Below are positions 16,185-49,857 of a stretch of 64,000 nt of DNA, piece after piece. A model generated the notes under the pieces. It was not told the DNA's origin and did not search any database. It saw only the letters and a program-made list of their open reading frames with translations. The stretch's first letter is position 1. Every line of letters begins with the position of its first letter. Source of the DNA: Tubulanus polymorphus (lineage: Eukaryota > Animalia > Nemertea); NCBI RefSeq assembly GCF_964204645.1, contig NC_134028.1, positions 3,224,001 through 3,288,000 of the forward strand. Direction: 5' to 3'. Made by a program: the position numbers and the translations under genes.

Positions 16185-18714
16185 AAGAGGATCGGTTTTG
16201 CTTAGAAAGAAAGTATAAAAGATTGAAAAGATTGAAAAAGATATTGCCGCACTAGGTGACTAAACAATACCCTCCGATAACAGTAGAACCATTCTAAAAT
16301 GTTTACTCTGTGATAGACTAGGTATAATTTCCCCATTTCGCAAAATAACACCGTCCTTGCATGGACGAAGAATCGTTACTTCTTTAATGGAATAATTTCT
16401 CACGCAAGACGCAGCTTCTGCTTGTATCACAGAATAATAGCTTACACAATGACAAAAACGTAGTTTATTACTAACGAGGCGTATACGTCATAAAAACAGA
16501 AAACCATAAAATACGTGATGAATTATTAGCAATTTCCAATACAACGGGGAAATGTGCGGTTGTAACATTTCGCTAATGTAACCGATCCGCGCGCATAACG
16601 GTGGAATTTCGTTTTAAAACTATATTTCATACGGAATAAATTCGAATATTTCAATCAAGATGTTGGATGTTCAGGTAAATCAGGTAAGGCTTAAACTAGA
16701 TACGATATAAAGAATAAATGTTGATTACTATGATACGAATTATGCTGTGTTAGTATAGTTTAATGCTCAATATCATATCATTCTTACAGAAAAAGATTCC
16801 AAATGGCCAAGCTCAACAAGATAAACAACGAAGGCATAGCTTTGAAAATATGAGCCAAAATATACAAAGGTACGCAATACACACCATCAAATAAATGATT
16901 TTCCAATTTAATTATTTCCTTCCTATCAGCTTTTGGTCGAGTCGACGAAAAGCTTTACTTTAGACGATAAAAGCTTCCTCAAAATGTTGATATCGAATGA
17001 ACAGTTCACGTTCAGGAGAATGCGTCGGCGATAAAAAAAATCGAAGATTGTTTATTCGGGGCAAATATCGCAATCTAGTCAGGAAAGTGCCATAGTTAAA
17101 TATAGGTTTACGTGATAAACATGATATATATATATAATTATCTGTTTTAAAGTAAGAGGCGTGTAAATATATTTCTGTGAATTCGGATAGAATTAGACCG
17201 CACTGCAAAATCTGACATGAAACAGGAAAATGTCCAACAAACGCATACACCCGTCGATGTTCAGGAAAAGGAAGACATTTGTGAAGAATCACGTAGCAAG
17301 AGAGCGTCGTAAATCTTTATTCAAAGATGGAAGTTTACCTATGAATATGCTGCTTCAACGATTGTCATCCAGTCTTTTACTTCATAGATGGAAACTTTCG
17401 TATGATACAGTAGGTCGGGCTACCATTGCGTAAGTTTATGAGATATTTTTGTTCATTCGCAATTACTTTATTCTAATCGAGAAGAAAGGTAATGGGGTGT
17501 CTAATGAACTGGCTGCTTCAGGCTGGCTCCAGCACCAACTGTGTAGCGACATATTCAAAACTACGGGCTTCTGTAATTTATAAGAATTCGTTTTAGATGA
17601 AATTCCTTTCGAAAACCCGACGAACGTAGCCCGATTAAGAAATTTCTTTTGAATTGCTGACTTTTTAATTGATCCCATATCTTATTGCTCACTCTTCACA
17701 ATTAACCGGGGTTATTCTTTCAAAATAACGACTGGCGGCGTGCTAGTTACGACGTTTCTCCGGATTGTAGCGACTTTATTCGACACATAAAAGCTTTTAG
17801 ACATTCGACGAAAGTATAAAAGTCAAGCTGCTCTGACGACAGAACGCATAATATATGCCATAATTGACAAATCGATGATATGAAATAAATTCACATCGCG
17901 ATGTTTCCCGTCATGCCTTAAAAGAGATATCCCAGATGAAAATATTCATAGCTGAATCTCACTGTCACACTGAACGGATACGCAGCGTGATGAGAGATGA
18001 ATAATGTAGAATTCAAGCTTATTCGGATTTACGTCTTCCAATCGCGACATCAAGACGAATGTAAGGTCAAGGTCAGGTGTATGCTTGTATTTGTAAGCGA
18101 AGTGAAAATGTTTACTAAACGCCGATTCCTGTTTGTATGATGTATCAGTGTAAAATAATCAATTTGGAAAAGATGCCAAAAACGTTGGTTTCACGAAGTT
18201 CAGGTCCGTCTTGAACACGTGACTGGAAATTGCGCATGCGTTGTACGAAGCGTCTTCGGATATTCATAATGAAAAGGGAAATGATTGAAAAAGTCAGCAT
18301 TGGACTTGTTGACCTAGAAAAAAAAATATTTCACAAAACTGCCACATACGTTCGTTAATGCTATTGAACTTGGTGGAGGTAATGAATGTCATAAAAATAT
18401 GTATGCGCCTTAGAGATCATTGTGATAAAATGTCAGTCGTTTCTTTTCAATCGCCTTTTACATATTATTTATGACAAAGAAAGTGAAAAGCCTTTGAATA
18501 GAAAACGAGTAACGCGGTTTTTTTATAAGTCGAATAGAAATGAACTCATACCGCGAGAGAGAATTGTTACGAATGCAATGTTTTCAGTCGTCCTTAGAGC
18601 GCAAAATCAAAAGGCGTTAGGTTGTGTATGCTTTTGGACTCGTCGTTTCTGTTATTTACAGCAGATTCGCGCAAAAAATACCGCCAAAATCTGGTGATTT
18701 TTTCTTCGAGCGAA

Positions 18715-21700
18715 ATGTCGCTTCCACAATTGTTGGTGCGGCCACCGGCACAGTCGGTGGCACCAACCAGAAAAGATTCATCGACTATATTCAAAGAAAG
18801 ACGAAAAGCTAGTTTACGTCGGAAAAGAAGAGACAGTAAATCAAAGACTAAAGATCGAAAAGAATCTAAGAAAATGTCGAAAGAAGAAGATCAAAGGTAC
18901 GGTGTTTATTGTTTTAGATACTAATCTCAGTAGGATAAGGTAAAAGGTACAACTGTATAAGTTCGGAATCCCGACTCCCGCCTGAACTGTCTGGAAATCT
19001 AGCAGAACCAGAACGATGATAACTTTTCAAATATCATTAAAATTTGATTGGTAATGAATATGGAAAAATGAAAATCTAAAATTTTGTTGTAAGAAAAAAG
19101 GTAGGCTAGGAGAGACTGAAACGTGTTTCAGAGGTTATTTTCTATAATGTTCACTAAGCTATAACGTGCACCCGATGACTTTCTCTAATTGACAAACAGC
19201 GTGCACAACCGTCGCGTTGGATACACGGTGGTGATACGTATCGACGATCTCGCTTGAAATATTACCTGATTAAACCAGATGAGAATATCATCATCAATAT
19301 GCATTATTGATGTATAAACTAGAGTTCCATATTACTAACATTGCCGACGACTTGTCCTGTATTTGTACGGCACAGTAAGCGTCCGCTGATATAACTAAAA
19401 CACTTACATTAGTGAAAGTATGAGTAAATGTTAACCTGTTTGAAATGTTACTCGTCGAACAATGCAGTATGTATGAATTAAGCTCCGTTAAGTAGCCAAT
19501 GTGGTGGTCACTTAGTAGATTCTAAAATGGATAAGCAAACAGCGAGACATTTGGTGGACGGCGCCAAATGGACAGGCATTTTTTGCGTAGACAGACTTTG
19601 ACGAGGTTAGACAGATACATTCAGCATGTGGAGGAAATCTTTACAATTCGTTACGAATAATCCATCTCAGGGCAGACGGCTAGGTCTAAGACTCTTAGCT
19701 TTATTGAGGTAAGAAATGTATCAGGTTCAAAAGTTTACCGATGATCTTGTTGAATATATTCTTAAAAAAAAAATGCATTTGACACGAACCTGGATTTTAC
19801 TATCAATCTATTTTTGTCACGTGAAAAAGTGATCACAAAGAATCTATCATTCAAACGCTTCACACGAATGTCAAAATAATTGAGTTGAAGAGTTTAATGA
19901 CAATCTTTCCAAATAGATCTAAACTGAACTAAAAGTATAATACGTTTTGAAACATCATTAGAGGTTGACATGAAGATTGGAAATAATGATAATGAATATA
20001 TATGGAAGTTAGAAAATTGAAATTTTGTTGTATGAAAAAAGGTACGCCAGCAGAAGCTCGAACCCGTATATATCAGCCAGGACTGTGTCCAGGTACGACA
20101 GGCTGTGCTACCAGGGACACTGTGCTACACCAGAAAAGGCTTCACCTCGACGAACTCAAAAATATGTATGGTTTACTCTGCGTCGCCTATGACGTAAATA
20201 TATGTCTGTACAAAATGCCTATCGTTTCAATGGCGTGGTTCCCGTTAGCTGCTGATCCAGCATCATTTTGAATAGTTGTACTATTTTCCGTGATGATAAT
20301 ATCGTTTACAATGCGCCATCATCAGAACTATCAACATCGGAATCAAACAAAACTCATGTTTCCCACGGTTGACAAAAATTGTATCGAATTCAATATTACG
20401 TGAACAAAACGTTGTTTACGTAACATCGTGAGCGTGTTTTCTGTCGTTAGGATTCGCGTAAATATTGTACGAGTATCGAACGAAATGGAACAAAACTTCC
20501 CAATGATTATGACGGACAGATTATATAATGACAGCTTTCGTCTATGGTCCTTGTCTGATCTATATTTGATGAAAAAAATTGCCTGCTTAATTTACGAGCG
20601 TCAATAAGAATGCCTTAGATTATAATGGAATCTTTCCAACACTTTTTCACTTCTGATAATACGAGTTGTCTTGCTTATATCACGATCAACATTCGATTCT
20701 TGTTCGGCGATGCATAGTCGAAAATAAATTAGAGCATTTAACATTACAATTTAGGAAATTATCGCTTTTAGCTCGTGTGAATGGTTTTGAATATTATGAA
20801 ACGTCAACTCAAATTATAGTCATAAACTTTTATTGCCGTCTTCGAATTTTTCGTTCGCACACATTTGACTGGGAACTAACGTAATCGTTTTATGATTTTA
20901 ATTTCACTTTCAAAGCCAAAGGAAGATACTCGAAAAGAAATCCAAACATTATAGCTTCTTATCCGCAAAAAATTTTCCCAATGATTATGACGGACAGATT
21001 ATATAATGACAGCTTTCGTCTATGGTCCTTGTCTGATCTATATTTGATGAAAAAAATTGCCTGCTTAATTTACGAGCGTCAATAAGAATGCCTTAGATTA
21101 TAATGGAATCTTTCCAACACTTTTTAACTTCTGATAATACGAGTTGTCTTGCTTATATCACGATCAACATTCGATTCTTGTTCGGCGATGCATAGTCGAA
21201 AATAAATTAGAGCATTTAACATTGCAATTTAGGAAATTATCGCTTTTAGCTCGTGTGAATGGTTTTGAATATTATGAGACGTCAAATCAAATTATAGTCA
21301 TAAACTTTTATTGCCGTCTTCGAATTTTTCGTTCGCACACATTTGACTGGGAACTAACGTAATCGTTTTATGATTTTAATTTCACTTTCAAAGCCAAAGG
21401 AAGATACTCGAAAAGAAATCCAAACATTATAGCTTCTTATCCGCAAATAGTGAATCCACATTAAAACGATCAATCTTTTAAATGGGCATTTAAACGTATT
21501 TCAGTGTGTTAACGACAGTCTTTCGATAAAGCTTAAGTGGAAAGTTTGGTTTTCTATGGTAGAACTATAGTTGATATTTCATCGAGCGTTAAGCCTTAAT
21601 AGGGACGCCTTGCAGCGCTCATGTCAATGGTCGGAATGACACTTTACACGCATTAAAATTTTTGATAAAGTAAACACACTGAAAAGTAATTTTTACCCTA

Positions 21701-24700
21701 TAGTCTGTTTGTGTTTATGCTTATTAATAAGGGATATATCTCTCCAGTTCAGCCGACATGACCCTCGAGTAATCATAGGCAATCGACATAGAAAAATGAA
21801 CTGAACGTATAGCTCGGCACGTTTTCGGGCTAAGGTGTCAATATACGTAGAGGTACCTTAGAACAAACATATATAAACTATCAAATAGATTTATACATAA
21901 CATGCAATACACGTGGCTATCGTTGAAATATTGACTGTTGGAATATCAAATGGATGTTGTTTGCAAAAACGAAGAAACGCAGAAAGTACAAAAATGTTGT
22001 CTGTGGAATTATTCGGGTTGAGAGCATAAGATTGATTAAGGATGAGTACGATACCTATAAATGTTGATTTTAAAAACATTTCGACTCATCCGATTGATAA
22101 AAAGATGTTGTCATTGGTCGGTCCGCGTCTTCTAGCCGCTTCGAAGGGCGGATCGCTGGCAACATCGACGGATTCATTCTCGATAAACTCGCAGACCACA
22201 TCACGACGCAACAGGTTCGTGTGGTTTTCACTGTTCAGTTTTTAGTTAAATAGAATTTTTAATTTTCTTTGCATTTATTGTGTGAATCCTTGTGAAGAGA
22301 CACAGTCGTCTTTTGTCGGGAACCATTTATTACAGGACTTGTCTTCATAATATCGCCATTTTCTTTTTCGAGTCCATACTTCTTTGAAATTGTCTATAAA
22401 TGGCAATAGGTAACTGTTTTCTTTATAATATATAGTTTTGATCGTGATGGGGTTGGCAACATACGTCTTGAAGAACAATTCAAACTGGAACACTTGCAAC
22501 AGTTGATGGACCTATTCGATAGCTTCAAACCGGCGGATGATGAACCTGGCGACCAAACACGGTCGATTCTTAAATTCATCAGTCGCAATGACAACAAACC
22601 GAAACGTGAACCGGGCTGTATGAATTTACAAGAGTTTAAAGACACAATAGCTGAGGTTCTGGCCACTGATGAATACAACGACCAGTTGGATAAACTATTT
22701 GCAAAGGTAAGGAAAAGCTGACAAGTTCTTTCAATGGCACAGCCTTTCAATCCGTCACTTGAGGTCATCCGTCGGTTGTGTCTGTTTTCTTCACAAACGC
22801 GTGTGTAAATTCTTGTTTTTTTTTTTTAAATCTCAGTTGGATACATCGTGCGATGGCTACGTAGACTGGAATGAATTTTGCACGTATATGCTACTGTTAT
22901 ACAGAGAAAATGATTACATGCAGACGAAAAAGGAAATTCCGTTCCGTTCCGAAGCTCGAATCCGGCACATTGTCTACAACAGGGTAATTTCTAGCTCTAA
23001 TTATCATTTCAAAATGTCGCTAATATTCTATGGATGGCTAGTAGGTGTATGAAGTGGTATCGCAGACAACCAGTTTCCTATTGAGGAATTTTTATCAATG
23101 TGTTTGATAATCCTTCTTAATGTCATATCCTCACGGCGAATCACCATGGCAAACTGATATAAACATTCAAGTAATCCCAAACATCATCTTGATTTAATGG
23201 ATACATATTAAAATGCCCAGACGGTGGTAAGGTCATTAGAAATTACATATGTTTGATCAATGAAATTGATATCTTATTCATTCCTATAGCAAGAAACCTC
23301 GACCAAAGTAATAGCGGTTGACAATCCCCTAAGATATGTGTCCATCAGTAAGGTAAGATATATATCATCTAGACATCGACGAGTGAGCTAACTGCAACTT
23401 TCTACTTGCTAAACTATCATCAAAATGTTTGCTTACAGGAAGGTGTTTTATCGATATGGGACCCGGTACACATGGTGATCGAGAAACACTTCGATATTGC
23501 ACCGGTTGAGGACGATCCTCGTGGTCAGAAACGACGATTTAAGACCTGGTTTACGGATTTGACATTTCTACCGAACTGTCATAAAATCGCCATCGCCTCG
23601 ACAAGTCGTGATATCAGATTCTACGACGTGTCGACTGGGCAATATTTTGAGGAATTCCATCTTTTCGGTATCTGAATTTATTTCTATGCGCACAAGATTT
23701 TCTCTTCGTAAAAATATCTTCTAATGAAATGATTCAAACCTTCCCGTATCTTCTTTTAGCACTGCCTGACGTACCGTACTCAATGGACTATCATTTCAAT
23801 GAACGAGTAAGAACTGATTAGAATATTCTTAATGAATTGCGATTTCGTTTTATCAAATTTGAACCTGATCAACATTTTGTACATTTAAGAATCCAAACGG
23901 AGAATCGGTATTCGTTTACGGCGATGACGCAGGCGCATTGAATGTTTTGTATTTTACCAGACCTGTCAGTCAATTGTTCGACACGCCTTTCATGGAAGAG
24001 AAAAAAGTTCAGAAGATATTCATGAAGGTATCGATTAGGCCTTCATCGTAAACCTTCTTTCCAGTCGTATTTGTCATTAATCTATGTTTTCATTAGATAA
24101 TGTCGTTGTTTTTACGTAACACAACAGGATTTGGGACATCATTCAAAATGGGTGCGTCACGTTGTGGCCATGGAAGTGATGCCGGACATTATAAAGAAAG
24201 TGAAATATATTCCCGATAATGAGAACATCATGTGCTGTTGTACAAATCCAAGAAGTTCTCTGGTCGTTTGGGACATAATGAGAAAGAAAAAGACGTATAT
24301 ATTCCGTATGAATAAGGTAATGCATGCTTGTAAGTCTGTTGATCTGATACATAAATATCTTGGTTTTGTTTTACCAATATTTCTTGTCATTTAAGGGATG
24401 TGAAACGTTCGATTACAATAAAAATCTGAATATTTTGGTTACCGGAAGTCCAGATCATATGGTCCGCATTTGGAATCCGTACGTTACCAGCAAGCCGACG
24501 GCTATACTTCAAGGTCATCTAACTGGTGTCATCGATGTCATTATACACGAACGATTTGGACAAGTTTTCAGTTATTCCAGGGACGCCGTAAGTTCTATAA
24601 TTTCAATATTTATTCATTTGTACGTGAGAAATGTATGAATTCAACGTGTTACGTTTTAGTGCAAAATTTACATAAATCAATGACCGCTAATCTAAATTCT

Positions 24701-27700
24701 CGTCCAGTGGAGACGTACAAGTAGAAGTTGATCGCGCTATTTAGGCTGAGGAACAAGCGGGCTACGTCGAAAGCGGTGCCGAGGGACGGGGCGAGTTGGG
24801 GTTTTATCGCGATCAAGCTCGATAGCATACCAGTAGGAAATAAACAAACTAGAAAGGCCGTAGATAAAACCAAAACAGTTACGGTTACTTTTCGGATCTT
24901 TTCGGATTTGTTTGCATCGGCACCTTGCAACGAGGTGGAGCGTTTCAGAACCAAAACAATTGAAAAATTGAAAATAACGAGTGTTGAAAATGGTAGATAT
25001 ATCACCATCGTCGACCCTCGTACCCAAGCGATACCTCTGCTTTTGCCGCTGATGTAGCAGCCGAATTTCCGGTCGTATTGCGTCACAAATAAATGAAACA
25101 AACCGACCGATAACGACATAAGTACGATGAAGACTATGATACATCTGGCGACCTTTTTAGTACCCATATCCCGTCCTTTAAAAGGGAACACAATTACGAC
25201 AAAACGCTCTAATGTAACTGCAACGACGCACCAAGAGCTCGTGGTGTATAATACATCGAACACGTATTCAACGAACCGACACATCACTGTCGACTTCACT
25301 GCGAAAACGAGCACCTTCGAGAAGTAATACGACATAACGTTTATCCAGATGATCATCGTGAAGAATACGATGATCGTGTCCGATACGGCTAAAGCTGCAA
25401 GATAGTTACTGTACGAACGGTGTCGCATTTTAGCCGTGCACATCGTTAGAAAGGACAACACGTTACCTACGATACCGAAACAAAATATCAACGGGCAAGC
25501 GTAGATATGAAGCTGCCGACTGAATTCACTTGATGGTGAACGCGGGAATTGCTGTATCGCTGGTGCTATATATGTTGGCGCCCAGTCTCTCATATCGGTT
25601 TCATTCATCCTCCTTCCCATTGGCGATTTCTGTGACAACAGTTTCCGCGATAACCTGCCGGATGGCTGGACGGCTTCGTGCGTTCGATCGAAATGAAAAC
25701 CAGCCAGTATTTCCTCTCGATTAAACTTATCATGAACTTAATTCAATAAGAAAGCGATTATTTCCGCTGCAATAAGCATCGTCCGTGGATAATACAAGTC
25801 TTTGTTTATTCAATCGGATTCATGACTTCTTTTATATCACTTTTCCCCAAATTTTGCCGCTCCGTTGGTTACACGTATTAAATCTATATATACTTAATCG
25901 TAAATACAGCTGTAATACACGCCTGAACGCGTCTTTGCGCGAGATAGACACGATACTATAAATAATTTCGTTTTCAATCGGACAGTTTTAAATCACATCG
26001 ATGTTTTTCTCAACCCAGGCTGTCAAAGTATGGGACACTAAAGAACACAGTTGTCTACAGACTGTACAGTTGAAATTCCCAACGAGCGTCCACAGCCGTC
26101 TACCAGAACACGGTTATTTTCCATGCCGTCTCATTCCACCTCCCGCTAACTGTCTCCTAGTCGCTGCTAATGATTACCTCGGACAACTCAAACTGGGACA
26201 GGTCGAAGAAGTCAAGAGCGCCTTGCCCGCTACACACGTCACACAGCTTTGCAGTGCCATTTACAATCCGTATTTTCGACAGGTAAGGTCAAAATGGCCC
26301 AGTTTGAAAACCAGTCATATCCAAAGTGAATTCAGTAAAAATGTTGTTGCTCCTGAACATAAACTGAGATTCCACTGTTCCATTGTTCCATACATCTTTC
26401 CAACAAAATAAAATCGGGGACTTTCTTTAAATTACATCGGCTTCTGAAATCTGAATGATCTAGGTTGTAACGGGTGCTGATGATTCGACGGTTGCAATTT
26501 GGGACGTCGATTCAGGGGGTAAAACGTTAGTATTCTCTAACGCTCACGGAGATGAGGAAATTACGTGTATGGTATTTGATAATACGTGGAGAAGGTTGAT
26601 CACTGCTGCTAGGAATGGCACCGTCAAGGTAGGGGCTGCGTTCTTGTTATCGGCAAACAAAGGAGAGAGAATCATAATAATAGTAATATTGATACAGTAC
26701 AAAAAGTAAAGACTAGGAGAGAAAAAAGAAATATACAAAAAAATCCATATTCACATGGAAAATAAGTATGTACAATTTGAATAATCTAAGGGCATACATT
26801 CGAAAGGTATCTAATTTCTACTAAGTTGAAAGTAAGGAGATGGACAAAACAGTACATAACAGTCAAAATATGCTTATAAACATTGATCAAAACTTTTTAA
26901 GGTCTGGAATTCCCAAAACGGTCACAATCTACACAAATTGGAACCTGTTGGTGACGTTGAAGTTACCGGTATTATACCACTAGCCGATAGACGTGTGATA
27001 CTAACCGTTGGCTGGAGTAGAAAATTGAGTGTGTACGACGACTCGGATCCAGATGTAAGTGATCTGGCATAAACCTGAGAGGATCAAACTTCCTTACATT
27101 CATCAACTACTATAGTTCCACTGTTTTATCAATAATTCTGGATGACTCCACAAAATTTTCCTTTACCTTTCATAGTTCTATCATTTTCTTTTCAAACAGA
27201 ATATGTACATCAAAGCTGATACGTCGTGGAAAGGAGGACAGGTTCACAAAGACGATATTCTAGCTATTGATTTCTGCCCTCCAAATCTTCTAGCCACAGC
27301 CAGCTATGACGGCGAACTGGTTCTATGGAGCACAGAAACAGAGAAAATGTACATGCGCTTACGAAAAGGGCAACCGTATAAAATGTAGATACCACTCTGA
27401 GATAAGTCCTGAATTTCCGAGGAAGTTTCACTAGATTTACTTTGATGAATGTTCGTTTCTCAATCAGGTCTCGACAGATGGAAAGTCTTCACGTTACTTT
27501 AGTTTCCAACAGTAGACCGAGCTCTCGGCCCGGGTCGAAAAACTCCCGTCCAAATTCGCGACATAGAAAATCCCACAAACCGGCGGAAGGGTAAATATCG
27601 AGTAGTCAACCGTCGATTATTTATTCTTCTTCAAGGTTCTTTTATCGTTGAATTGTTTGTTTCAAATAATTTCAGAGATCCAGTGCCCGTAGATAAATTA

Positions 27701-29921
27701 CTATTTCTACCTAGTCGATATAAAAACGCTAAACGAAACGATGGTGCTATACTTATATCAAGCGAGGCTGGAGTACTCAAATGGTGGAGTATATTCGGTC
27801 AAAAACACGAATTAGGTAAGAAGAATGCGAGAAAATGTGAAACCGTGGTGGGCGCTGGCTGGCAATGCTTTCATTAATGTATATGCACTTTTCGCGACAG
27901 GTGAATTCTATGCTCCTGATAAAGAAGATGAATCCGTGTTGGCAATCGATGCTGATTCCGATAATACAACTATTGCTACTGGTGACACACAGGGTAACAT
28001 TTCATTATGGGATATCGCAGATTACTGTACATTTCCCAGAGATATGGTAAGCTGTAGAAGGAAGCTTCATCTCCGAATCAAATGATTCCAGTCAATAAGT
28101 TGTGTCTATCTTTATAATTACAGAAAGTTACGACTAAACCGCCGCTGATTAGTAGCTGGAAGGCTCACGATAGTGCACTGGTCAGCGTTCAAATTATCGA
28201 CCACGATTGTGGTCAATTCGTACTGTCCGCTTCTACTGACAAGACGGCGCGTCTCTGGTCAATTGAGGGCTATTACATCGGTACTTTCGGCCAGGTAAGG
28301 TTTCTATAGACTGGACAAAAATCGTGCTCTCTGAATCATACGGGATCATTTTTCGGGAACTCTTTTCTTCTTAGAAAAAATTGTGGAACCTCAAGCGCAG
28401 AAGAACGTGGGCACACCCCAAAGATCCTTGGTCAGTTCTTGATAGAGGTTCGTACACGAGTGTCAGGACATTAATTATATTTCGAGTGGTTTGAATAATG
28501 TTAGGATCTAGATTTTTTTTCGTGGAGGAAAATTATCTTTAAGAAACCGTTGTAACAAAGAAGCGTATTCGTCAATATAGGTAAAGTTATTCCCGAGGGA
28601 GCCAATGCCGTGGACACCGATACGCCCGCTAACGCTGATCGACCAGACACTGACGATGACGACACAAACGAACAGAAAGAAGAAGCCGACGAGTCACCAT
28701 CACCTGATCATCTAGAAACAGATGGTACTAGACTCGACTTGATCGAGGAAGAACTAGACGAGGAAAACGATGATCTACCCGAACTGCCATCTGTTCATGT
28801 CTCATCAGATACTGATGACCAAAGACAAGTACGTAACATTCCGCCATTAGAAAAAATGAATAGTGTGCAACTGATAGGATTTCATTTGAACTGTTAGAGC
28901 TTCCGATAATATATACAGGACCCGATTCCACAGTTTGTGAGTTAGAGTTATCTCTGAGGGTTAAAATCAGTTCGTTTTTACTCAATATTCAAAATCAACT
29001 TAAAAGAACTGTTGAATTGGGTCGTGTACACCGATATTAAGCTTTGTACACCAATCTTATACCGGATAGAAAAACACATTATACCTTCTCACTGACACTG
29101 AAGTAGTAGTAATTATAAAATCTTCACTATTTTCATTTTTGGGAACGGTATCGAAGCTTGCAAAGCGACACATATAGTGTTTATCTTATGCCACCACGCA
29201 CTCATGCTTTGTTTTTAGAGGCTAAAATCTAAGTCACTGGATAGTGGTGGTACTGCTGAGACAGGGGATTTTGTCATCGCTTTTCACAAAAACCGATCAC
29301 AGACATTTGCATTTAGCTCCGACACTACACGACACAAGGTAACAAGTGGTTGTGCCGTATTCGAGCTCGAAGATATGATTATGGTTGTTCGAATTATCTT
29401 GAATTTTGCCAATGTATAACGTGTTTTTTTTCGAAACCCATTTTTTCGTAGACGCTATTGGGTATTCGGGCAGAACGCGATTTACTCCGTCAAAAGTTCA
29501 GTCGACAGGAACGTAGGCATTACGGTGATATCAACATCAAAACCATGTCACGAATGAATGGAAAAGTCTGCTCACCGTTTCAAGCTCTTGCGACTCCAGT
29601 AATTATTACAAAAAGTACGAAGATTTCATCTCTCGATATATTCCTTTTTCCTAATTTGTCGATTTCATGTGCGTATTGCAGGATATAACTGTGATACCAA
29701 TACCTAGAGGACTGCCAGTTACACCTCGAATGGTTAGTAGAGGTTACACGTCCACAAATATGGACGAGGATTCTCTACAGAAAATGGACTTGCGATATTA
29801 TTATCACGAAGGAGATGAACGGGGCAAAAGTGATGGACGAAGATCTCACAGACTACCGGCTATAAGAGGACGTAAAGGGCAACCTTCTGTGGCCACTATG
29901 TCCCGCGGCATTACGATGTAG
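18715..29921 (+). CDS. EF-hand + WD40-repeat protein of the WDR49/EFCAB8/WDY-like (cilia/flagella-associated) family, multi-exon
   Basis: EF-hand region CMNLQEFKDTIAEVLATDEYNDQLDKLFAKLDTSCDGYVDWNEFCTYMLL, then WD repeats (LVTGSPDHMVRIWNPY, LQGHLTGVIDV, VVTGADDSTVAIWD, LATASYDGELVLWS, IATGDTQGNISLWD, WKAHDSALVSV...LSASTDKTARLWS) and an acidic C-terminal tail. Stop at 29919-29921, AATAAA at 30095. The first exon is uncertain (see findings). Confidence 0.85.
20497..21447 (+). repeat. Near-perfect 478-bp tandem duplication in the first intron of the WD40 gene
   Basis: 20497-20969 and 20975-21447 differ at about 4 positions. The ORF track shows twin ORFs offset by exactly 478 nt. Confidence 0.95.
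24649..25620 (-). CDS. Intronless rhodopsin-class (class A) GPCR, peptide-receptor-like, nested antisense in a WD40-gene intron
   Basis: Seven hydrophobic segments with GIVGNVLSF (TM1), YLAALAVSD (TM2), CRF...SSWCVVAVTLERFVVIVFP (TM3, ERF for DRY), AFLVCLFP (TM6) and LNSAINFYLYVSTGREFR (TM7/helix 8). N-glycosylation site NET near the start. First ATG at 25620 (alternative 25608). Confidence 0.92.
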   Translation of the reverse strand: MGRRMNETDMRDWAPTYIAPAIQQFPRSPSSEFSRQLHIYACPLIFCFGIVGNVLSFLTMCTAKMRHRSYSNYLAALAVSDTIIVFFTMIIWINVMSYYFSKVLVFAVKSTVMCRFVEYVFDVLYTTSSWCVVAVTLERFVVIVFPFKGRDMGTKKVARCIIVFIVLMSLSVGLFHLFVTQYDRKFGCYISGKSRGIAWVRGSTMVIYLPFSTLVIFNFSIVLVLKRSTSLQGADANKSEKIRKVTVTVLVLSTAFLVCLFPTGMLSSLIAIKPQLAPSLGTAFDVARLFLSLNSAINFYLYVSTGREFRLAVIDLCKFCTKT

Positions 29922-30300
29922 GGAACGTTGTAGATTCTTAGATTCATCCCATTTTCTACAAACTAGCAAAATACCCTAAAGGGCTTGCTTGTGCAGGATT
30001 GGTGTTTGGCTCAGAATACGTTGCCTTAGCCAACAAAGATTTATCTAATTTTTATGTAAGTTGTTATAAAAATCTTTATAGGTTTATATTCATGAATAAA
30101 CTATATGAATTGTAAACACATCGACGTTTTGTTCATGGGGTTTTTGTATAGGATTGCAAATATTTTCACTTGAAAATACGTAATGCGCCGATCTGGGGCC
30201 TAAAACGGACAAAAATGACTAGACTGGTTGTTTTTTTTTGCTGAGCAAAACATACATACGCAGCTATGGTAACTTCAATAATATTTTACCGTTTACCACG

Positions 30301-31122
30301 ATGGATCTCGATGGATATTCTGACAACTCATCCAAGATAAAATACATAACACATAACCGTAGTAAAGATTTGGAAAGTTTTCCAAAGACAACTCGTAATG
30401 TAGTAAGAAAGGTTCTGAAAAGGCGTGAACTGCCAAAACCTAATGCCCCAATCTCTCTGATAGATTTATCAGCACCTTCAGATGGTCCTAATCTGCGACA
30501 AAGTAACCCCCGAGCAACTCCGAGAGACGGTAGGTTTAACCTATAATTGCATTGATAGCCGCTACTTTTCTGATTTGCCCCTAGAAAACGGTGCAGATCG
30601 GAAAATTGAGCGACGGACTTAAGAAGGATTCAAATTTTGGCTGGAATCTTTTATTAGCATTGTCTCACATGAACTACACACGACTGAATACAGTGGAAGA
30701 AATGAAACACATTCGTGTACCGGTTGATCAGGTCATCACCGTAATGAATAATGCCAGGAAATGTCCGTCTGAGCATGACGCTAAAGAAATATTAGCCATC
30801 CAGCACACATTCGCTAAAATTATGAAGTTATGGAGGCAGGCCGACAGGCTGAAGTCATTAGCTGCTCATTTGTTTGGTAAAGAATGGGTCAGTTGGTAAG
30901 CATTCGCATTCCGATACGTATTGAAACTAAGAGCGATGCAAATATATATCATTATTGATTAATTTCAGCAATTTGAAGAAAGGGTTCCGAAGAGTGGTTG
31001 CACAGGACTGCGCTGCTGCTGGAGACCAGGTTTCAACCCTTGTCATAGAAGTTGCCGTCGCTGATAAACATGTTGTATCACGGTGGAGTCGGTCTCGTCA
31101 TACCGGTTCAAAATACACCTGA
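30301..31122 (+). CDS. Hypothetical 2-3 exon orphan gene or pseudogene
   Basis: Exon 30585-30894 (GTAAGC donor) splices in frame to 30969-31122 (TTTCAG acceptor, TGA), giving ...HLFGKEWVSCNLKKGFRRVVAQDC...SKYT*. The upstream ORF from ATG 30301 joins in frame only through a weaker donor at 30403. No family recognised. Confidence 0.4.
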
Positions 31123-31753
31123 CCCCTCTATGTACGAACAATAATATTTCTACAAAAAATTCAAAATGTTTTCTTTTTTTCTGATTTTTTATTGATATGA
31201 TATGATTTATTTATCATACAAAATGTTTACAGAATTAATTAATGAATAATATACATACAATGTAATAATATCAGATGAAGGCCTGCCTCGAAGCATCAGT
31301 TGACTCGTACCAGAAAGCAGCCGAAAATTCATAATTTCGTAAAGATTTGTTTTATCATGAATTATAAAATATATTTCGATATCGAAACGCAATGAATCAC
31401 TCGAAAGTGATCACTGGAAATCGTGATTGAAAATAATTCACATCGATTCGAGGACCCTTCTCGATTTCGATCATCAATCTGCCCGAAAGTTGAAAGTGGT
31501 CAAGGAAGGAACTTGCTCTTATGGAATTACCTGATTTTGGTTTAGAATTAAACACCCTTTCTCATAATACACCATCCGATCGATTGCCTATGATACCCTC
31601 GAAAAGCCCGGTTAATGTGTCATCTTTGAATCAGTGTCATAATATTAGCTGTTCTGATTATTCATATCGTTTTGTACACGAGATTTAAGTGATCAGCTGC
31701 TCATTAACTAAAACGCGACTTCTAAGATCCCGTCGTCAGATATATCGAAACCA

Positions 31754-31781
31754 TGACGTCACGGTTTTCCTGTTTTATATA
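31754..31781 (+). promoter_or_regulatory. CRE + GGTTTTCC + TATA module upstream of cytokine-like gene A (copy at ~34678-34710)
   Basis: Palindromic TGACGTCA, then CGGTTTTCC (Rel/NFAT-like) and TTTTATATA. The module is conserved in both duplicates while nearby sequence has diverged. Confidence 0.55.
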
Positions 31782-31981
31782 TGAAATCACACCGGTACTG
31801 TAGTGTATGCATACACACAATACACAACAGCTGTATCGATCACTCGGTGGTCGGCGCGCAATGATATCACATCGAAACCAACACCGAAACTTTTATTTCA
31901 TTCCCGAATTCAGTATCGAAAGTTACAGTATAAATATGGCTCCGTCTTTCACCATAATCATAATACAAAACAAAAAGCAAT

Positions 31982-33369
31982 ATGAAAACATCTGGTCTTA
32001 TCCCGGGTAAGATTTATATTTCGTGGACTTTTCTACCAAACTTTAACAATTCAAAAGTTCAAATTAATCTCTTCTCTACTGAACTAATGGATTAATCGTT
32101 TTTACTTAAGATATGATTTTGGTGTTGAACATTTCAGTTCTTCAAATTGTAACAATATTTTTGATGAGCGGTTGTCTCGTCCAAGGACGTTCACTGTCGT
32201 CAGAATCACCCGTAAATCGTCCATGCGGTACACCCTTTCAATCACTACCGGAAAATACAACGACTGCTGATCCGGGTTGGGGAAATTATGTGCGTCGTTC
32301 AGGTGTTATCAGGTCGATGGTCAGCGATCTCATGCAGTTATATGTAAGTATTTCCGCAACTTCTTCCATGGTAAAAACAATTAATGTCTTTGTATTGATT
32401 TAGCTTCAATGTAATATTTATCATTTCATTCGCATGTTATTTTAATTTCTAATTCAGCATTAACGAAATCAATGTCATAAATTAAAATCAAAACTTAATC
32501 AACAATTCACCAAGTCCATGCCGCCCCGGTTAACATAATTCGTTTAGTTTTACATTGTACACAATTGAAAAAAAATTATTCAAATCAATCACTTTTAAAG
32601 CGTCAACGAAGGAACGTAAGTAGAAAAACTCATTGAAATTCTGGTGTGCTGACAACTTACCTTAAATTGACTTTCTACGTTACATGCATTTATGGGGTTT
32701 TAGAGGTTTTAGGTTTTAGGGTCACATGTTAAGTTGAAGTAGCCCCTCATTTATGTTAATTGGTCAATTGTATACATCCAAATTTACATCGTTTATAGGA
32801 TTAGATCGTTTATTTAGGATCATGTAATTCATTGAATGCCAAAATGTCAAAATATAAATCTAATGTGTAATATTTTCACATTTAAGGTGACCAAACGAAT
32901 CAAGAGTCAGTTGATAATCAGCTCTTATGACGTGTTCTCTATACCGGGATTTCCCCAGGCTCCGGTCATCACCAGTGTCACCGATCTGAACTTAAAAACA
33001 AACACGTTTCTCGACGATGCTTACAAAAACCTAGCCATATCGTACATGTATATCGAGCAGATTCTACTGGACGAAGAAAAACTTGTCGCTGAATCGTTCA
33101 GCGCTCGAATTACAGCACTTATGAAACGTATTAAAGAGGACATGCTTTGTTCATTAGCTATGGATCTGCATTCTCGAGGTGTTAAACACGCGTGGACGGC
33201 TGATGACATCGTCCCAAACCAATACAAGGACATCGACGACTTCTCCACACGCAACTTAAGAGACTACATAATATTGAGAGATATACGTAAAATTATTGAC
33301 TATCAAATTCGTGTCATGAACTACAAGAAGGACGTAAAATCCAACATCATTCCAGCTGCCGCAAATTAG
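31982..33369 (+). CDS. Secreted long-chain four-helix cytokine-like protein (Unpaired/IL-6-like), copy A, 237 aa
   Basis: Exons 31982-32006, 32138-32343 and 32887-33369, with GT-AG introns in phases 1 and 0. Translation: MKTSGLIPVLQIVTIFLMSGCLVQG/RSLSSESPVNRPCG...MLCSL...TRNLRDYIILRDIRKIIDY...AAAN*. Signal peptide present, amphipathic helices. The gene model is solid; the family is inferred. Confidence 0.8.
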
Positions 33370-33959
33370 TGTTTGCATTTGAAAACTGATGATAATATTT
33401 TGTAAATTCTCGTGAATCACCAATGCAACATATTTTGAACTCAATTATTAACCAATCATTTTATAACATGAAATATCGTATTTGCCTGTTATTTGTTTTT
33501 GTTTCGCGCTTTTTGCAATGAAAAATATTTGTCACTGTTTTACAACGTTTTATGGTGAATAATGTGGTGTTTTTAGTGTGTATCATTGTAGTAATCTGAT
33601 AATAAAAGATATATTTTTAGATAAATTCCTTTCTAGTTCGATCTCAGTTGCCATTTTCACGGAGGTGTTGCAGGAAATCGACTTCGATGAGCATGTTTCA
33701 GATAAAGGAATCAATTAAGAATGACATCTCGTAACTGTTTAACTATAAAATCCGATTCCTCATATCGCTTTTCACACTCGACGCGAAGCCTATCATCAAC
33801 TGTATCCGTGTGCAATGGAATTAGCGGTAATATTAATCTAACACTGAAATCGATAATCAAACAATTTTCTTTAACAAAAAAAACTAAATTTTCAACATGA
33901 CTTAAAGATCATGCAAAATGTGCTTTTGCCAGAATCGTCTATGATCTTTGAGAAAAGGA

Positions 33960-34076
33960 TCACAGGCTAACAGGCGACACAAGGTCACAGGCGACACAAG
34001 GTCACAGGCTAACAGGCGACACAAGGTCACAGGCGACACAAGGTCACAGGCTAACAGGCGACACAAGGTCACAGGC
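33960..34076 (+). repeat. Minisatellite (GGCGACACAAGGTCACA-based, 42-bp higher-order unit) at the duplication junction
   Basis: CACAGGCTAACAGGCGACACAAGGTCACAGGCGACACAAGGT repeated about 2.8 times. Confidence 0.9.
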
Positions 34077-34905
34077 GCTGATGAAACTTCACGAAGTTTT
34101 TCATTGAAATGATATGATTTATTTTTCATATATAATTATTACCGAATGAATGAATGAATAATATACGTACAATGTAATAATATCAGATGAAGAACTGGTT
34201 CGAAGCATCAGTTAACTCGTACCAGAAAGCAGCCGAAAATTCATAATTTCCTACAAATTCGTTTTATCATGAATTATGAAATATATTTCGATATCGCAAC
34301 GCAATGAATCACTCGAAAGTTGGAAATCGTGATTGAAAATAATTCACATCGATACGAGGACCCTTCGCGATATCAATCATCAAACTGCCCCAAAGTTGAA
34401 AGTGATCAAGGAACATACTCTTATAGAATTACCTCATTTCGGTTTAGCATTATAAACCCTTTCTAATAACACACCATCCGATCGGCTCATAGCCTATGAT
34501 ATACAGAGAAGCTGTTTAAGCGTCATTTTTGAATCAGTGTCGTTTTTATTTCCTGTACTTATTATTTATATCGTCTTTTACACGATATTAAAAGTGATCA
34601 GCTGCTCATTAACTAAAACGCGACTAGTAATTTCTATCCGCCAAATATAGATCCCGTCGTCAGATATATCGAAACCATGACGTCACGGTTTTCCTGTTTT
34701 ATATATAAAATCGCACCAGTACTGTAGTGTATGCATGCACACAGTACACAATAGCTGTATCGATCACTCGCTGGTCGGCGCGCAATGACATCACATCGAA
34801 ACCAACACCAAAACTTTTATTTCATTCCCGAATTCAGTATCGAAAGTTACAGTATAAATATGGCTCCGTCTTTTACGATAATCAAAATACAAAACAACAA
34901 GCGAT

Positions 34906-36471
34906 ATGCAAACATCTGGTCTTATCCCGGGTAAGTTTTATATTATGTGTAGTTTTCGACCGAACTTAAGTAAGTTTTATATTATGTGTAGTTTTCGAAC
35001 GAAGCAATTTAAAAGTTCAAATTATACTCTTCTCTACTGAACTATTGAACTAATCGTTCTTACTGAAGATTTAATTTTGGTGTTGAACATTTCAGTTGTC
35101 CAAATTGTAACGATATTTTTGATGAGCGGTTGTCTCGTCCAGGGACGTCCACTGTCGTCAGAATCACCCGTAAATCGTCCATGCGGTACACCCTTTCAAT
35201 CACTACCGGAAAATAAAACGACTGCTGATCCGGGTTGGGGAAATTATGTGCGTCGTTCCGGTGTTATCAGGTCGATGGTCAGCGATCTCATGCAGTTATA
35301 TGTAAGTATTTCCGCAACTTCTTCCGCAATAAAAACGATTAATGTCTTTGTATTGATTTAGCTTCAATGTGATATTCATCATTTCATTCGCATGTTATTT
35401 TCAATTTCCAATTCAGCATTAACGGAATTAATTTCACAAATTGAGGTCAAAATTAAATCAACATTCACCATATTAATCCTGCCTCGATTATCATAATTCG
35501 TTTAGTATTACATTGTACACAATTTTTAAAAGTTTATTCAAATTAATCACCTTTAAAGCGACAACGAATGAACGTAAGTAGAAAAGCTCGTTGAAATTAT
35601 GGTTTACTGACAACTAACCTTAAATGTAGTTTTACTGCCACTTTCTATCGGTGCATTGTATTATCAAATGTTGTATATCAATCCATCACAAAATCTATCA
35701 TTCTTTACATATATAATTCTAGCTCAATCCTCTCTGTTCAGACTATAAGACTTTCTATATTACATGCATTTATAGGGTTTTAGAGTCTCTAGTTTTTAGG
35801 GTTTTTAAGTTTTAGGGTTGCACGTTTCGTTTAATAAAAGTATCCTTTCTGTTTTATTTATCTTTGGTCAATGGTATATATTTATATTCATGTCGTAAAT
35901 AGGATTAGATCGTTTATTCAGAATCATATAATTTATTTAATGCCAAAATCTCAAAATATAAATCCAACGTGTATTTTTTACATTACAGGTGACCAAACGA
36001 ATCAAAAGTCAGATGATAATCAGCGCCTATGACATTTTCTCAATACCGGGATTTCCCCGGGCTCCGGTCATCACAAGTGTCACCGATCTGAACTTAAAAA
36101 CAAACACGTTTCTCGACGATACTTACAAAAATCTAGCCATATCGTATACGTATATCGAGCAGATTCTATTGGACGAAGAGAAACTTGTCGGTGAATCGTT
36201 CAGCGCTCGAATTACAGCACTTATGAAACGTATTAAAGAGGACATGCTTTGTTCGTTAGCTATGGATCTGCATTCTCGAGGTGTAAAACACGCGTGGACG
36301 GCTGATGACATCGTCCCAAACCAATACAAGGACATCGACGACTTCTCCTTACGCAACATAAGAGACTACATAATATTGAGAGATATACGTAAAATTATTG
36401 ACTATCAAATTCGTGTCATGAACTACAAGAAGGACGTTAAATCCAACATCATTCCAGCTGCCGCGAATTAG
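34906..36471 (+). CDS. Secreted cytokine-like protein (Unpaired/IL-6-like), copy B, 237 aa
   Basis: Exons 34906-34930, 35096-35301 and 35989-36471, with the same exon lengths (25/206/483 nt) and phases as copy A. 13 amino-acid differences by manual count, ORF intact. Confidence 0.8.
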
Positions 36472-37324
36472 TGCTTGCATTTGAAAACTGATATTTTCCA
36501 TTGTTTGAACATTTCAAATAAGATATTTCGTAAATTATCGTGAATCACCAATACAACATATTTTGAAGTCACTTGTTAACCAATCATTTTATAACGTATT
36601 GAAATAATGTATTTGCCTGTTATTTGTTATTGTTTCGCGCCTTTTTTGCAACGGAAAAATATCTGTCATTGTTTTTGGATGTTTTATGGTGAATAATGTG
36701 GTGTTTTTACTTTTTACTGTATAAATGATTATGATCATAAAGATCTCTGGTGCTGTGCTTGGTTGGGTTTCGCTAACAATGTCACATAACAAAAGCTCGA
36801 ATCATTTTATATTGTAATCTAGAATCATTGTAGTAATCTGATAATAGAAGAGATATTTTTAGATAAATTTCGTTCTTCATTTCACTCTAAGTTGTAATTT
36901 TCATGGATGTGTTGCAAGAAATCGACTTCGATGAGCGCTTTTCAGATGAAAGAATCACTTTAAGAATGACATTTTTTAACCGGTAAAACAATAAAATCCG
37001 ATTCCTCATATCGCTTTCCACATTCGAAGCCTATCATCAGCTGCATCCGTGTACAATGGAAGTACAAAAGAGGTGATTATGTAAATACGTTAATCTAATA
37101 CTGAAATCGATAATCCAACAATTTTCAAAACTCATTTTTCAATATACTGTATCATAATACGACTGATTTAAAGATGACGCAAAATGTTCTTTTTCCAAAA
37201 CCGTCAATAATCCGTGAGAAAAATCGGTAAAACACCTGGCAGATTATCATTAATCATTACTGGTTTATATATTAAGATATATATCTAATGCTGGGATACT
37301 CGGAGTTTCAGTGTAAACTTCGAC

Positions 37325-38129
37325 ATGTTACTGATGTGGAAGGTTCTTGTGTTGTTGTTGTTTGTTCTATCTCTGTCAGCGGATGTTTATGGCGGAGAAA
37401 CGGGTGCGTTTGGCGTTTCTTTTTTTGAGGTCCATTTGTGAATTTGCGAATAGGAATTAAATGAATTACTTACATTTGTGCTTTATGCGAAAGAGCAAAT
37501 TTAAAAGCAAGTTTCTTGAGCTTGTTATTCGTACTTCTAATTCAGAGGAAAGGCGTCATCCGATAAAAAGAGTCTGGAAATGCAACATAGGTGCATGGTT
37601 CGGTAAGTTGATTTAATTCTAACCTTCATCATCAAATGTATCGAAAAGGAACACGGATTAACGAAAATGTGAAATACATGCATATATATTTCCCAGATAT
37701 CAGTTTTAATCGCAAAGAAATAAAAATAATTAATATGTGGAATGATTTGGTTATGGATTCAAAAATAAATGTGTTTTAAGAATTGAAACCTGACTCAAAA
37801 GAGCAGGCCTGGGCCTACAGACCTACAGTAAGGGCTGGCCTGGGCCTACAGGCCTACAGTAAGGGCAGGCCAGGGCCTACAGACCTACAGTAAGGGCAGG
37901 TCTGGGCCTACAGACCTACAGTACATACTGACTTCTCCCAGTCGAGTAAATTATAATCGTATAATTGAAAGGTAATCCTTAAAATTTATACATTTGTGGT
38001 ATGAGACATCATCAAATCCGCGTCAACTCCGTTCGTGAACTTATCATTTCAGGCTCACGTAGTCGCTGTAAAGGGATGCTTTCAGCTAAGCGCAAACCAT
38101 CTGGCGGAAAAAAACACGACGCGCAATGA
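37325..38129 (+). CDS. Small secreted prepropeptide (70 aa; neuropeptide, antimicrobial or toxin-like precursor)
   Basis: Exons 37325-37403, 37546-37602 and 38053-38129, both introns phase 1 and GT-AG. Translation: MLLMWKVLVLLLFVLSLSADVYGGETEERRHPIKR-VWKCNIGAWFGSRSRCKGMLSA-KR-KPSGGKKHDAQ*. TATA-like sequence at ~37265. Confidence 0.75.
37803..37922 (+). repeat. 31-bp minisatellite, about 4 copies, in intron 2 of the peptide gene
   Basis: Unit GCAGGCCTGGGCCTACAGACCTACAGTAAGG with minor variants. Confidence 0.9.
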
Positions 38130-41196: not shown

Positions 41197-41278
41197 GGTA
41201 GCGTGGCCGAGTGGTCTAAGGCGCTGGTTTTAGGCACCAGTCTAGAAATAGGCGTGGGTTCGAATCCCACCGCTGCCA
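41197..41278 (+). tRNA. tRNA-Leu(UAG), copy 1
   Basis: GGTAGCGTGGCCGAGTGGTCTAAGGCGCTGGTTTTAGGCACCAGTCTAGAAATAGGCGTGGGTTCGAATCCCACCGCTGCCA: 82 nt, long variable arm, anticodon TAG, TTTT downstream. Confidence 0.96.
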
Positions 41279-42130: not shown

Positions 42131-42212
42131 GGTAGCGTGGCCGAGTGGTCTAAGGCGCTGGTTTTAGGCACCAGTCCAGAAATGGGCGTGGGTTCGAATC
42201 CCACCGCTGCCA
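42131..42212 (+). tRNA. tRNA-Leu(UAG), copy 2
   Basis: Identical to copy 1 except in the variable arm (CCA-GAAA-TGG versus CTA-GAAA-TAG). TTTT downstream. Confidence 0.96.

Positions 42213-49636: not shown

Positions 49637-49857
<221 letters not shown>

Follow-up and report, generated by a model that had tools for sequence, protein, structure and literature searches.

A tandem pair of candidate helical cytokine genes in a nemertean and their relatives across protostomes

A 64-kb stretch of Tubulanus polymorphus contig NC_134028.1, here called "the window", carries two similar genes on the plus strand that are candidates for secreted cytokines of the long-chain helical class; all coordinates are given in window numbering. 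Gene 1 consists of exon 1 (31982..32006), with 8 codons and one further base before a phase-1 intron, exon 2 (32138..32343), which encodes the hydrophobic core of a likely signal peptide, Pro-Cys38, a sequon at Asn48 and most of predicted helix A before a phase-0 intron, and exon 3 (32887..33369), which completes helix A and encodes a long AB loop, helix B, helix C with Cys165, a long CD loop, helix D and the stop codon. The exons of gene 2 lie at 34906..34930, 35096..35301 and 35989..36471, the last including the stop codon. Each gene gives 714 nt when spliced and 237 amino acids, with no internal stop, and the first intron is in phase 1 and the second in phase 0. The four donors each read GTAAG, and the four acceptors each end in AG. 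In both genes exon 1 is predicted from its splice signals, a TATA box and its conservation in the two copies, and that of gene 1 has no homology support; exons 2 and 3 of gene 2 also match the family profile described below. Among the 32 open in-frame donor/acceptor pairs, the 32343/32887 join scores highest against that profile, the next best being 1.8 bits lower, and it is the one with the consensus GTAAGT donor. An alternative in-frame ATG is present within intron 1 of gene 1 only.

The genes lie in two head-to-tail duplication units on the plus strand, delimited by blastn of the two halves and by direct-repeat families: unit 1 (31185..33956, about 2.8 kb) contains the upstream region, gene 1 and its 3' region, unit 2 (34097..37222) spans about 3.1 kb, and a short tandem repeat separates them near 33960-34080. 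The units are 77-86% identical in gapped blastn alignment, with exons 95-97% and introns 86-87% identical, and the proteins are 94.5% identical, differing at 13 residues. Synonymous divergence (dS) is 0.111 and nonsynonymous divergence (dN) 0.027, giving a dN/dS of 0.24 (Fisher p 1.5e-4). Both genes are intact, recently duplicated and under purifying selection. A sequence-only reading of this DNA had proposed two intact three-exon genes for 237-residue proteins, which the stop-free frames, the higher identity of exons than introns and the dN/dS bear out, and the short exon 1 followed by a phase-1 and then a phase-0 intron that it described is present in both copies at the predicted junctions. 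Contigs of the public run X1, possibly from the source sample, contain both copy-specific intron-2 sequences. In runs X2 and X3, which come from one sample, a contig links copy-2-like upstream DNA (34591) to the copy-1 promoter (31687) with the variants mixed; it may come from a recombinant haplotype, from a third copy or from a collapse in assembly across 34 shared letters.

Both proteins have cysteines at positions 21, 38 and 165. The most hydrophobic 12-residue segment spans residues 12-23, and no later stretch resembles a membrane span. Because the hydrophobic peak covers residues 12-23, Cys21 probably lies inside the signal peptide, leaving Cys38 and Cys165 as the two mature cysteines, in agreement with the number proposed from the letters. 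For the secreted protein with a signal peptide proposed there, the hydrophobic segment would be the core of that peptide: a cut after about Gly25 would leave a chain of 212 residues and 24 kDa with an isoelectric point of 8.5-9.0, where mature long-chain class-I cytokines have roughly 160-210 residues. One sequon stands at residue 48 in both copies, as NTT or NKT, as the sequence-only reading had noted. A sequon after the Pro-Cys motif is absent in 4 of 15 relatives, and because the copies are so nearly identical and the relatives do not keep the position, the sequon carries little weight.

A word-based sequence search found nothing, and a Pfam scan of the exons of the two genes gave no match. 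An exhaustive phmmer search with exon 3 against 1.84 billion representatives gave 16 matches at E<=1e-3. One of these (P0001), a long protein of Ig and PKD repeats with a short chance match, was dropped, and the remaining 15 align as a single family. Profile searches yielded a further 23 matches from 3,981 candidates and 4 from 7,994, the two sets partly overlapping. Named members come from Owenia fusiformis (CAH1784202.1), four Mytilus species (CAG2257740.1), two Haliotis species (LOC124253238) and Priapulus caudatus (XP_014681742.1), and among arthropods from the ostracods Cyprideis and Darwinula (CAG0891897.1), the mites Medioppia, Oppiella, Oppia and Brevipalpus and Centruroides scorpions (XP_067131521.1); all are annotated as "uncharacterized", "unnamed" or "hypothetical". 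The matches include no named insect or deuterostome, but these searches were word-limited, so this is not evidence of absence. As leads only, the ESM Atlas gave two unnamed arthropod clusters (262 aa with a score of 0.83 and 296 aa with 0.79, both below 0.9), which may be insect members of the family. Centruroides has at least two diverged paralogues (P0024/P0049 versus P0037), which are 42% identical.

A family profile built from the 15 full-length relatives, with the window sequences left out, gives spliced gene 1 a score of 92.3 bits (E 1.5e-30), matching it collinearly from Pro-Cys38 to helix D across exons 2 and 3. When exon 2 was shuffled, the score fell to 81.9 +/- 1.3 bits, and 92.3 was attained in 0 of 200 shuffles. 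The family motifs are WxxPC, LC and RxxRD. Trp-x-x-Pro-Cys occurs in all 15 full-length relatives, and in a mite-heavy and partly redundant set of 34 aligned relatives Asp139, Cys165 and Arg202 are invariant and Arg199 is kept in 32. The window copies share the Pro-Cys, Leu-Cys and Arg-x-x-Arg-Asp motifs, keeping Pro-Cys38, Asp139, Cys165, Arg199, Arg202 and Asp203, but they form a recent tandem pair that is 16-24% identical to the named relatives and has neither the motif Trp nor the Met of the CD loop. A tree built on 26 rows unites priapulid and arthropod members in a supported clade (96/90) with the window genes outside it, which fits the earlier suggestion of a probably non-arthropod source; the window genes group weakly (73/85) with Owenia, Mytilus and Haliotis on a long branch, a placement that makes a lophotrochozoan host likely. 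The window genes and their annelid, mollusc, priapulid and arthropod relatives belong to one unnamed pan-protostome family.

The motifs NPCG, LLCE and R-RDxxIxR, which the sequence-only reading had attributed to arthropod Unpaired-like proteins, do occur in arthropod relatives, but these are labelled "uncharacterized". The Pfam Unpaired model (PF15972) matches none of the 32 family rows at E<=10, although HMMER filters drop most matches above 0.1, so the name "Unpaired-like" is not supported for these relatives, which may still be remote homologues. Drosophila Unpaired 1-3 and the Upd-like proteins of mosquitoes and wasps are secreted, cytokine-like protostome proteins that act through Domeless and JAK/STAT (PMC7378365). 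Aedes Upd-like induces Socs in a Dome-dependent manner (10.1101/2025.09.21.677592), published Upd-like sets are dipteran (10.1101/2025.09.21.677592; 10.64898/2026.10.23.761461), a Nasonia upd-like gene has been described (10.1101/2020.04.19.048553), and Upd3 is a four-helix cytokine according to the title of one cited paper. The arthropod members may already be known as upd-like in the Aedes and Nasonia alignments, which would lower the novelty for arthropods but not for lophotrochozoans.

Structural evidence points to a cytokine fold. With language-model features, all 10 matches listed are class-I cytokine clusters or unnamed chordate clusters. A full-length Mytilus relative, modelled whole, is predicted to form an up-up-down-down four-helix bundle with long AB and CD loops; all 42 Foldseek matches listed and the top 13 VIA rows for this model are long-chain class-I cytokines, the first four VIA rows being IL-11, CLCF1, IL-27 and OSM. 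The model of window exon 3, with a predicted local distance difference test score (pLDDT) of 77.8, has three helices (B, C and D) together with the AB and CD loops. Its top 12 VIA rows are long-chain class-I cytokines, and the top seven all belong to the gp130 family, with CLCF1 first. Helix A of the window protein is assigned through alignment to the modelled relative, not from its own model. The Pro-containing loop and last helix described from the letters appear in the exon-3 model as coil 17-30 and helix 119-154 (exon 3 numbering). The class assigned earlier, long-chain class-I helical cytokines beyond the reach of BLAST, agrees with the language-model features, the fold of the relative and the fold of exon 3 itself, and the four-helix bundle then expected from structure prediction and Foldseek is what the Mytilus relative gives, window exon 3 agreeing in its VIA rows. 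The long-chain bundle is very probable as the fold. The Pfam models IL6, IL11, LIF_OSM, CNTF and GCSF match none of the window exons, 16 relatives or 32 alignment rows.

Gene layout was compared with that of vertebrate cytokines. Vertebrate class-I cytokine genes have a short first coding exon, a phase-1 intron and later introns in phase 0, a layout that both window genes match at their predicted junctions. IL-6 and IL-11 genes have five exons, and LIF, OSM and CLCF1 are three-exon genes. The second intron of CLCF1, OSM, LIF and IL-11 is in phase 0 at the end of helix A, and window exon 3 starts at a position that aligns to the helix A end of the same four proteins. LIF and OSM have a disulfide between the N-terminal arm and helix C. 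The vertebrate gp130 family (IL-11, CLCF1, IL-27p28, OSM, LIF, CNTF and IL-6) resembles the window family by fold and gene layout, but the two are 9-14% identical without a profile match, the window family is found in protostomes, and no conserved aromatic residue corresponds to the Trp or FxxK of vertebrate site III. The hydrophobic hot spot of site III lies where helix D begins; at that point of the model the window protein carries Phe196-x-x-Arg199, a possible counterpart, but the Phe column is variable in the 34 relatives. Published site-III residues are Trp157 of IL-6 (PMC7378365) and FxxK (PMC9601804).

The likely explanation is that the window genes encode secreted long-chain four-helix cytokines of the IL-11/IL-6/LIF type, each of which would bind a Domeless/gp130-like receptor and switch on JAK/STAT. 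The chain would be secreted after its signal peptide is cut near Gly25, and a Cys38-Cys165 disulfide, proposed because no other cysteine is conserved across the whole family, would fasten the N-terminal arm onto helix C. The invariant charged residues Asp139, Arg199, Arg202 and Asp203 of helices B and D may lock the bundle or make a receptor site. The ligand would bind its receptor and cluster two chains, so that JAK phosphorylates STAT. This receptor and pathway are proposed because class-I helical cytokines use such receptors, of the class-I (WSXWS) kind, and because the receptor predates the protostome-deuterostome split (PMC1963337, PMC12284397, PMC7378365); gp130 proper is vertebrate (PMC13203501). 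It is an evenly balanced question whether the family is the surviving protostome branch of an ancestral bilaterian gp130-type cytokine, homologous to IL-11, CLCF1, LIF and OSM and serving as the ligand for Domeless, listed by reviews as missing, in annelids, molluscs, priapulids, chelicerates and crustaceans, with the three-exon layout and the arm-helix C disulfide kept for more than 550 million years and dipteran Unpaired as a fast-evolving offshoot.

In earlier surveys, IL-6-family cytokines are "only found in vertebrates" in an 18-phylum screen that places receptor, JAK and STAT in molluscs (PMC13203501), have no invertebrate matches (PMC9601804) and are absent outside jawed vertebrates (PMC12284397), and Upd is missing in ticks and mites including Varroa (PMC7962413, PMC12027997). 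A full-text search that mostly left out subscription journals and did not query accessions found no description of these family proteins as cytokines, and the accessible parts of PMC13736523 and PMC9779611 hold nothing relevant to the family. Receptor, JAK and STAT are known across invertebrates where the ligand is repeatedly reported absent, and the predicted fold makes the family a likely candidate for that ligand. The family can be searched for by sequence, having accessions from mussels, abalone, Owenia, Priapulus, mites and scorpions, and it opens the gap to experiment. If the assignment is true, IL-6-type signalling would go back to the bilaterian ancestor, and a cytokine to measure and perturb would become available for work on shellfish immunity and on regeneration.

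The same fold could belong to an endocrine hormone of growth or metabolism, akin to growth hormone, prolactin or leptin, instead of an inflammatory gp130-type cytokine, and such a hormone would still be expected to use JAK/STAT. This is unlikely, since the hormones have lower Z scores than IL-11 and CLCF1, both of which stand more than 1 Z unit above placental lactogen in both models, and since one of the two cysteines precedes helix A and the other is within helix C, unlike the disulfide of growth hormone and prolactin, which links the AB loop to helix D. Pfam Hormone_1 matched neither the window exons nor the 32 family rows. CLCF1 and IL-27p28, which are among the top three folds for the Mytilus model, act with the partners CRLF1 and EBI3, and CLCF1 comes first for window exon 3, so that the window proteins might be subunits unable to signal alone; alternatively, the derived copies, which have lost conserved family residues and sit on a long branch, might be antagonists or decoys. 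A signal-peptide-like stretch of their own, the lack of a spare mature cysteine for an interchain bond and the retention of all helix B, C and D invariants argue against these roles, which are improbable.

An assembly artefact with two alleles placed in a row, or a pair of silent relics, would be consistent with the absence of an RNA run among the public runs listed for the stretch, with the absence among the listed contigs of one covering the entire gene pair, and with the second-sample contig in which copy-2 upstream DNA runs into the copy-1 promoter. However, the run X1 intron-2 contigs have depths of 39.7 and 57.4 against 37.6 and 38.5 for the unique flanks, equal or higher and not halved, which argues against two alleles as far as contig depth, a rough guide, allows. 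The introns differ by 13-14%, and both frames are intact under constraint, so this explanation is very improbable. For the three-helix model of exon 3, Dps has the best Foldseek E-value, raising a secreted helical bundle unrelated to cytokines whose ferritin/Dps-like likeness arose by chance; the exclusively cytokine matches listed for the Mytilus model largely refute this, leaving it scarcely credible.

Upstream of each gene, a post hoc scan with 13 motifs found a full cyclic AMP response element (CRE) palindrome, TGACGTCA, at 31754..31761 for gene 1 with a copy at 34678. These are the only two in the window, about 225 nt before each start codon, and they count as one duplicated event. A C/EBP-like half site, GCGCAAT (31856..31862, plus strand; copy at 34780), is weak, since the window has 6 of them over its two strands. 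The TATA box of gene 1 (31929..31935, plus strand; copy at 34853) lies 53 nt 5' of the ATG and marks the predicted transcription start. The CRE and C/EBP-like elements suggest stress- or infection-inducible expression, the least certain part of the proposal, and an immune or stress trigger has about an even chance of being correct. At 31945-31959 and 34869, contigs of runs X1 and X3 match the promoter to just beyond the TATA box and then continue into more than 250 unrelated letters, and another contig comes in at 31959 out of unrelated sequence; these breaks may reflect an allele or an extra copy that carries an insertion close to where transcription starts.

The upstream neighbour of the pair is a multi-exon plus-strand gene at about 18600-29900 with an EF-hand and WD40 look but no significant Pfam match, presumably WDR49/WDR64-like. 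Antisense amid its exon-like frames, an intronless rhodopsin-family G-protein-coupled receptor frame occupies 24649-25737 on the minus strand (7tm_1, Pfam E 2.2e-26). Just upstream of the duplication, two overlapping plus-strand open reading frames of 107 and 104 codons in different frames (30223-30899), without a Pfam match, are possibly a frameshifted relic. Nup85 exons lie at 2301-4842 on the plus strand (Pfam E 7.1e-20), and an acidic, serine-rich plus-strand frame of 870 codons at 6627-9239, followed by coiled-coil-like exons and with no Pfam match of note, is perhaps part of a TMF1/golgin-type gene. The stretch from 37500 to 64000 contains about 26 kb without a convincing long coding frame. 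A direct repeat of 300 nt or more, with copies 98% identical, lies at 20489-21266, a tandem repeat with a 31-nt unit at 37799-37953 and a long (AT)n tract at 49640-49855. The CpG observed/expected ratio is 1.24 across the window and is not depleted. Three tRNA-Leu(TAG) calls were made, at 5669-5761 on the minus strand and at 41197-41278 and 42131-42212 on the plus strand, the latter two being 90% identical and 934 nt apart.
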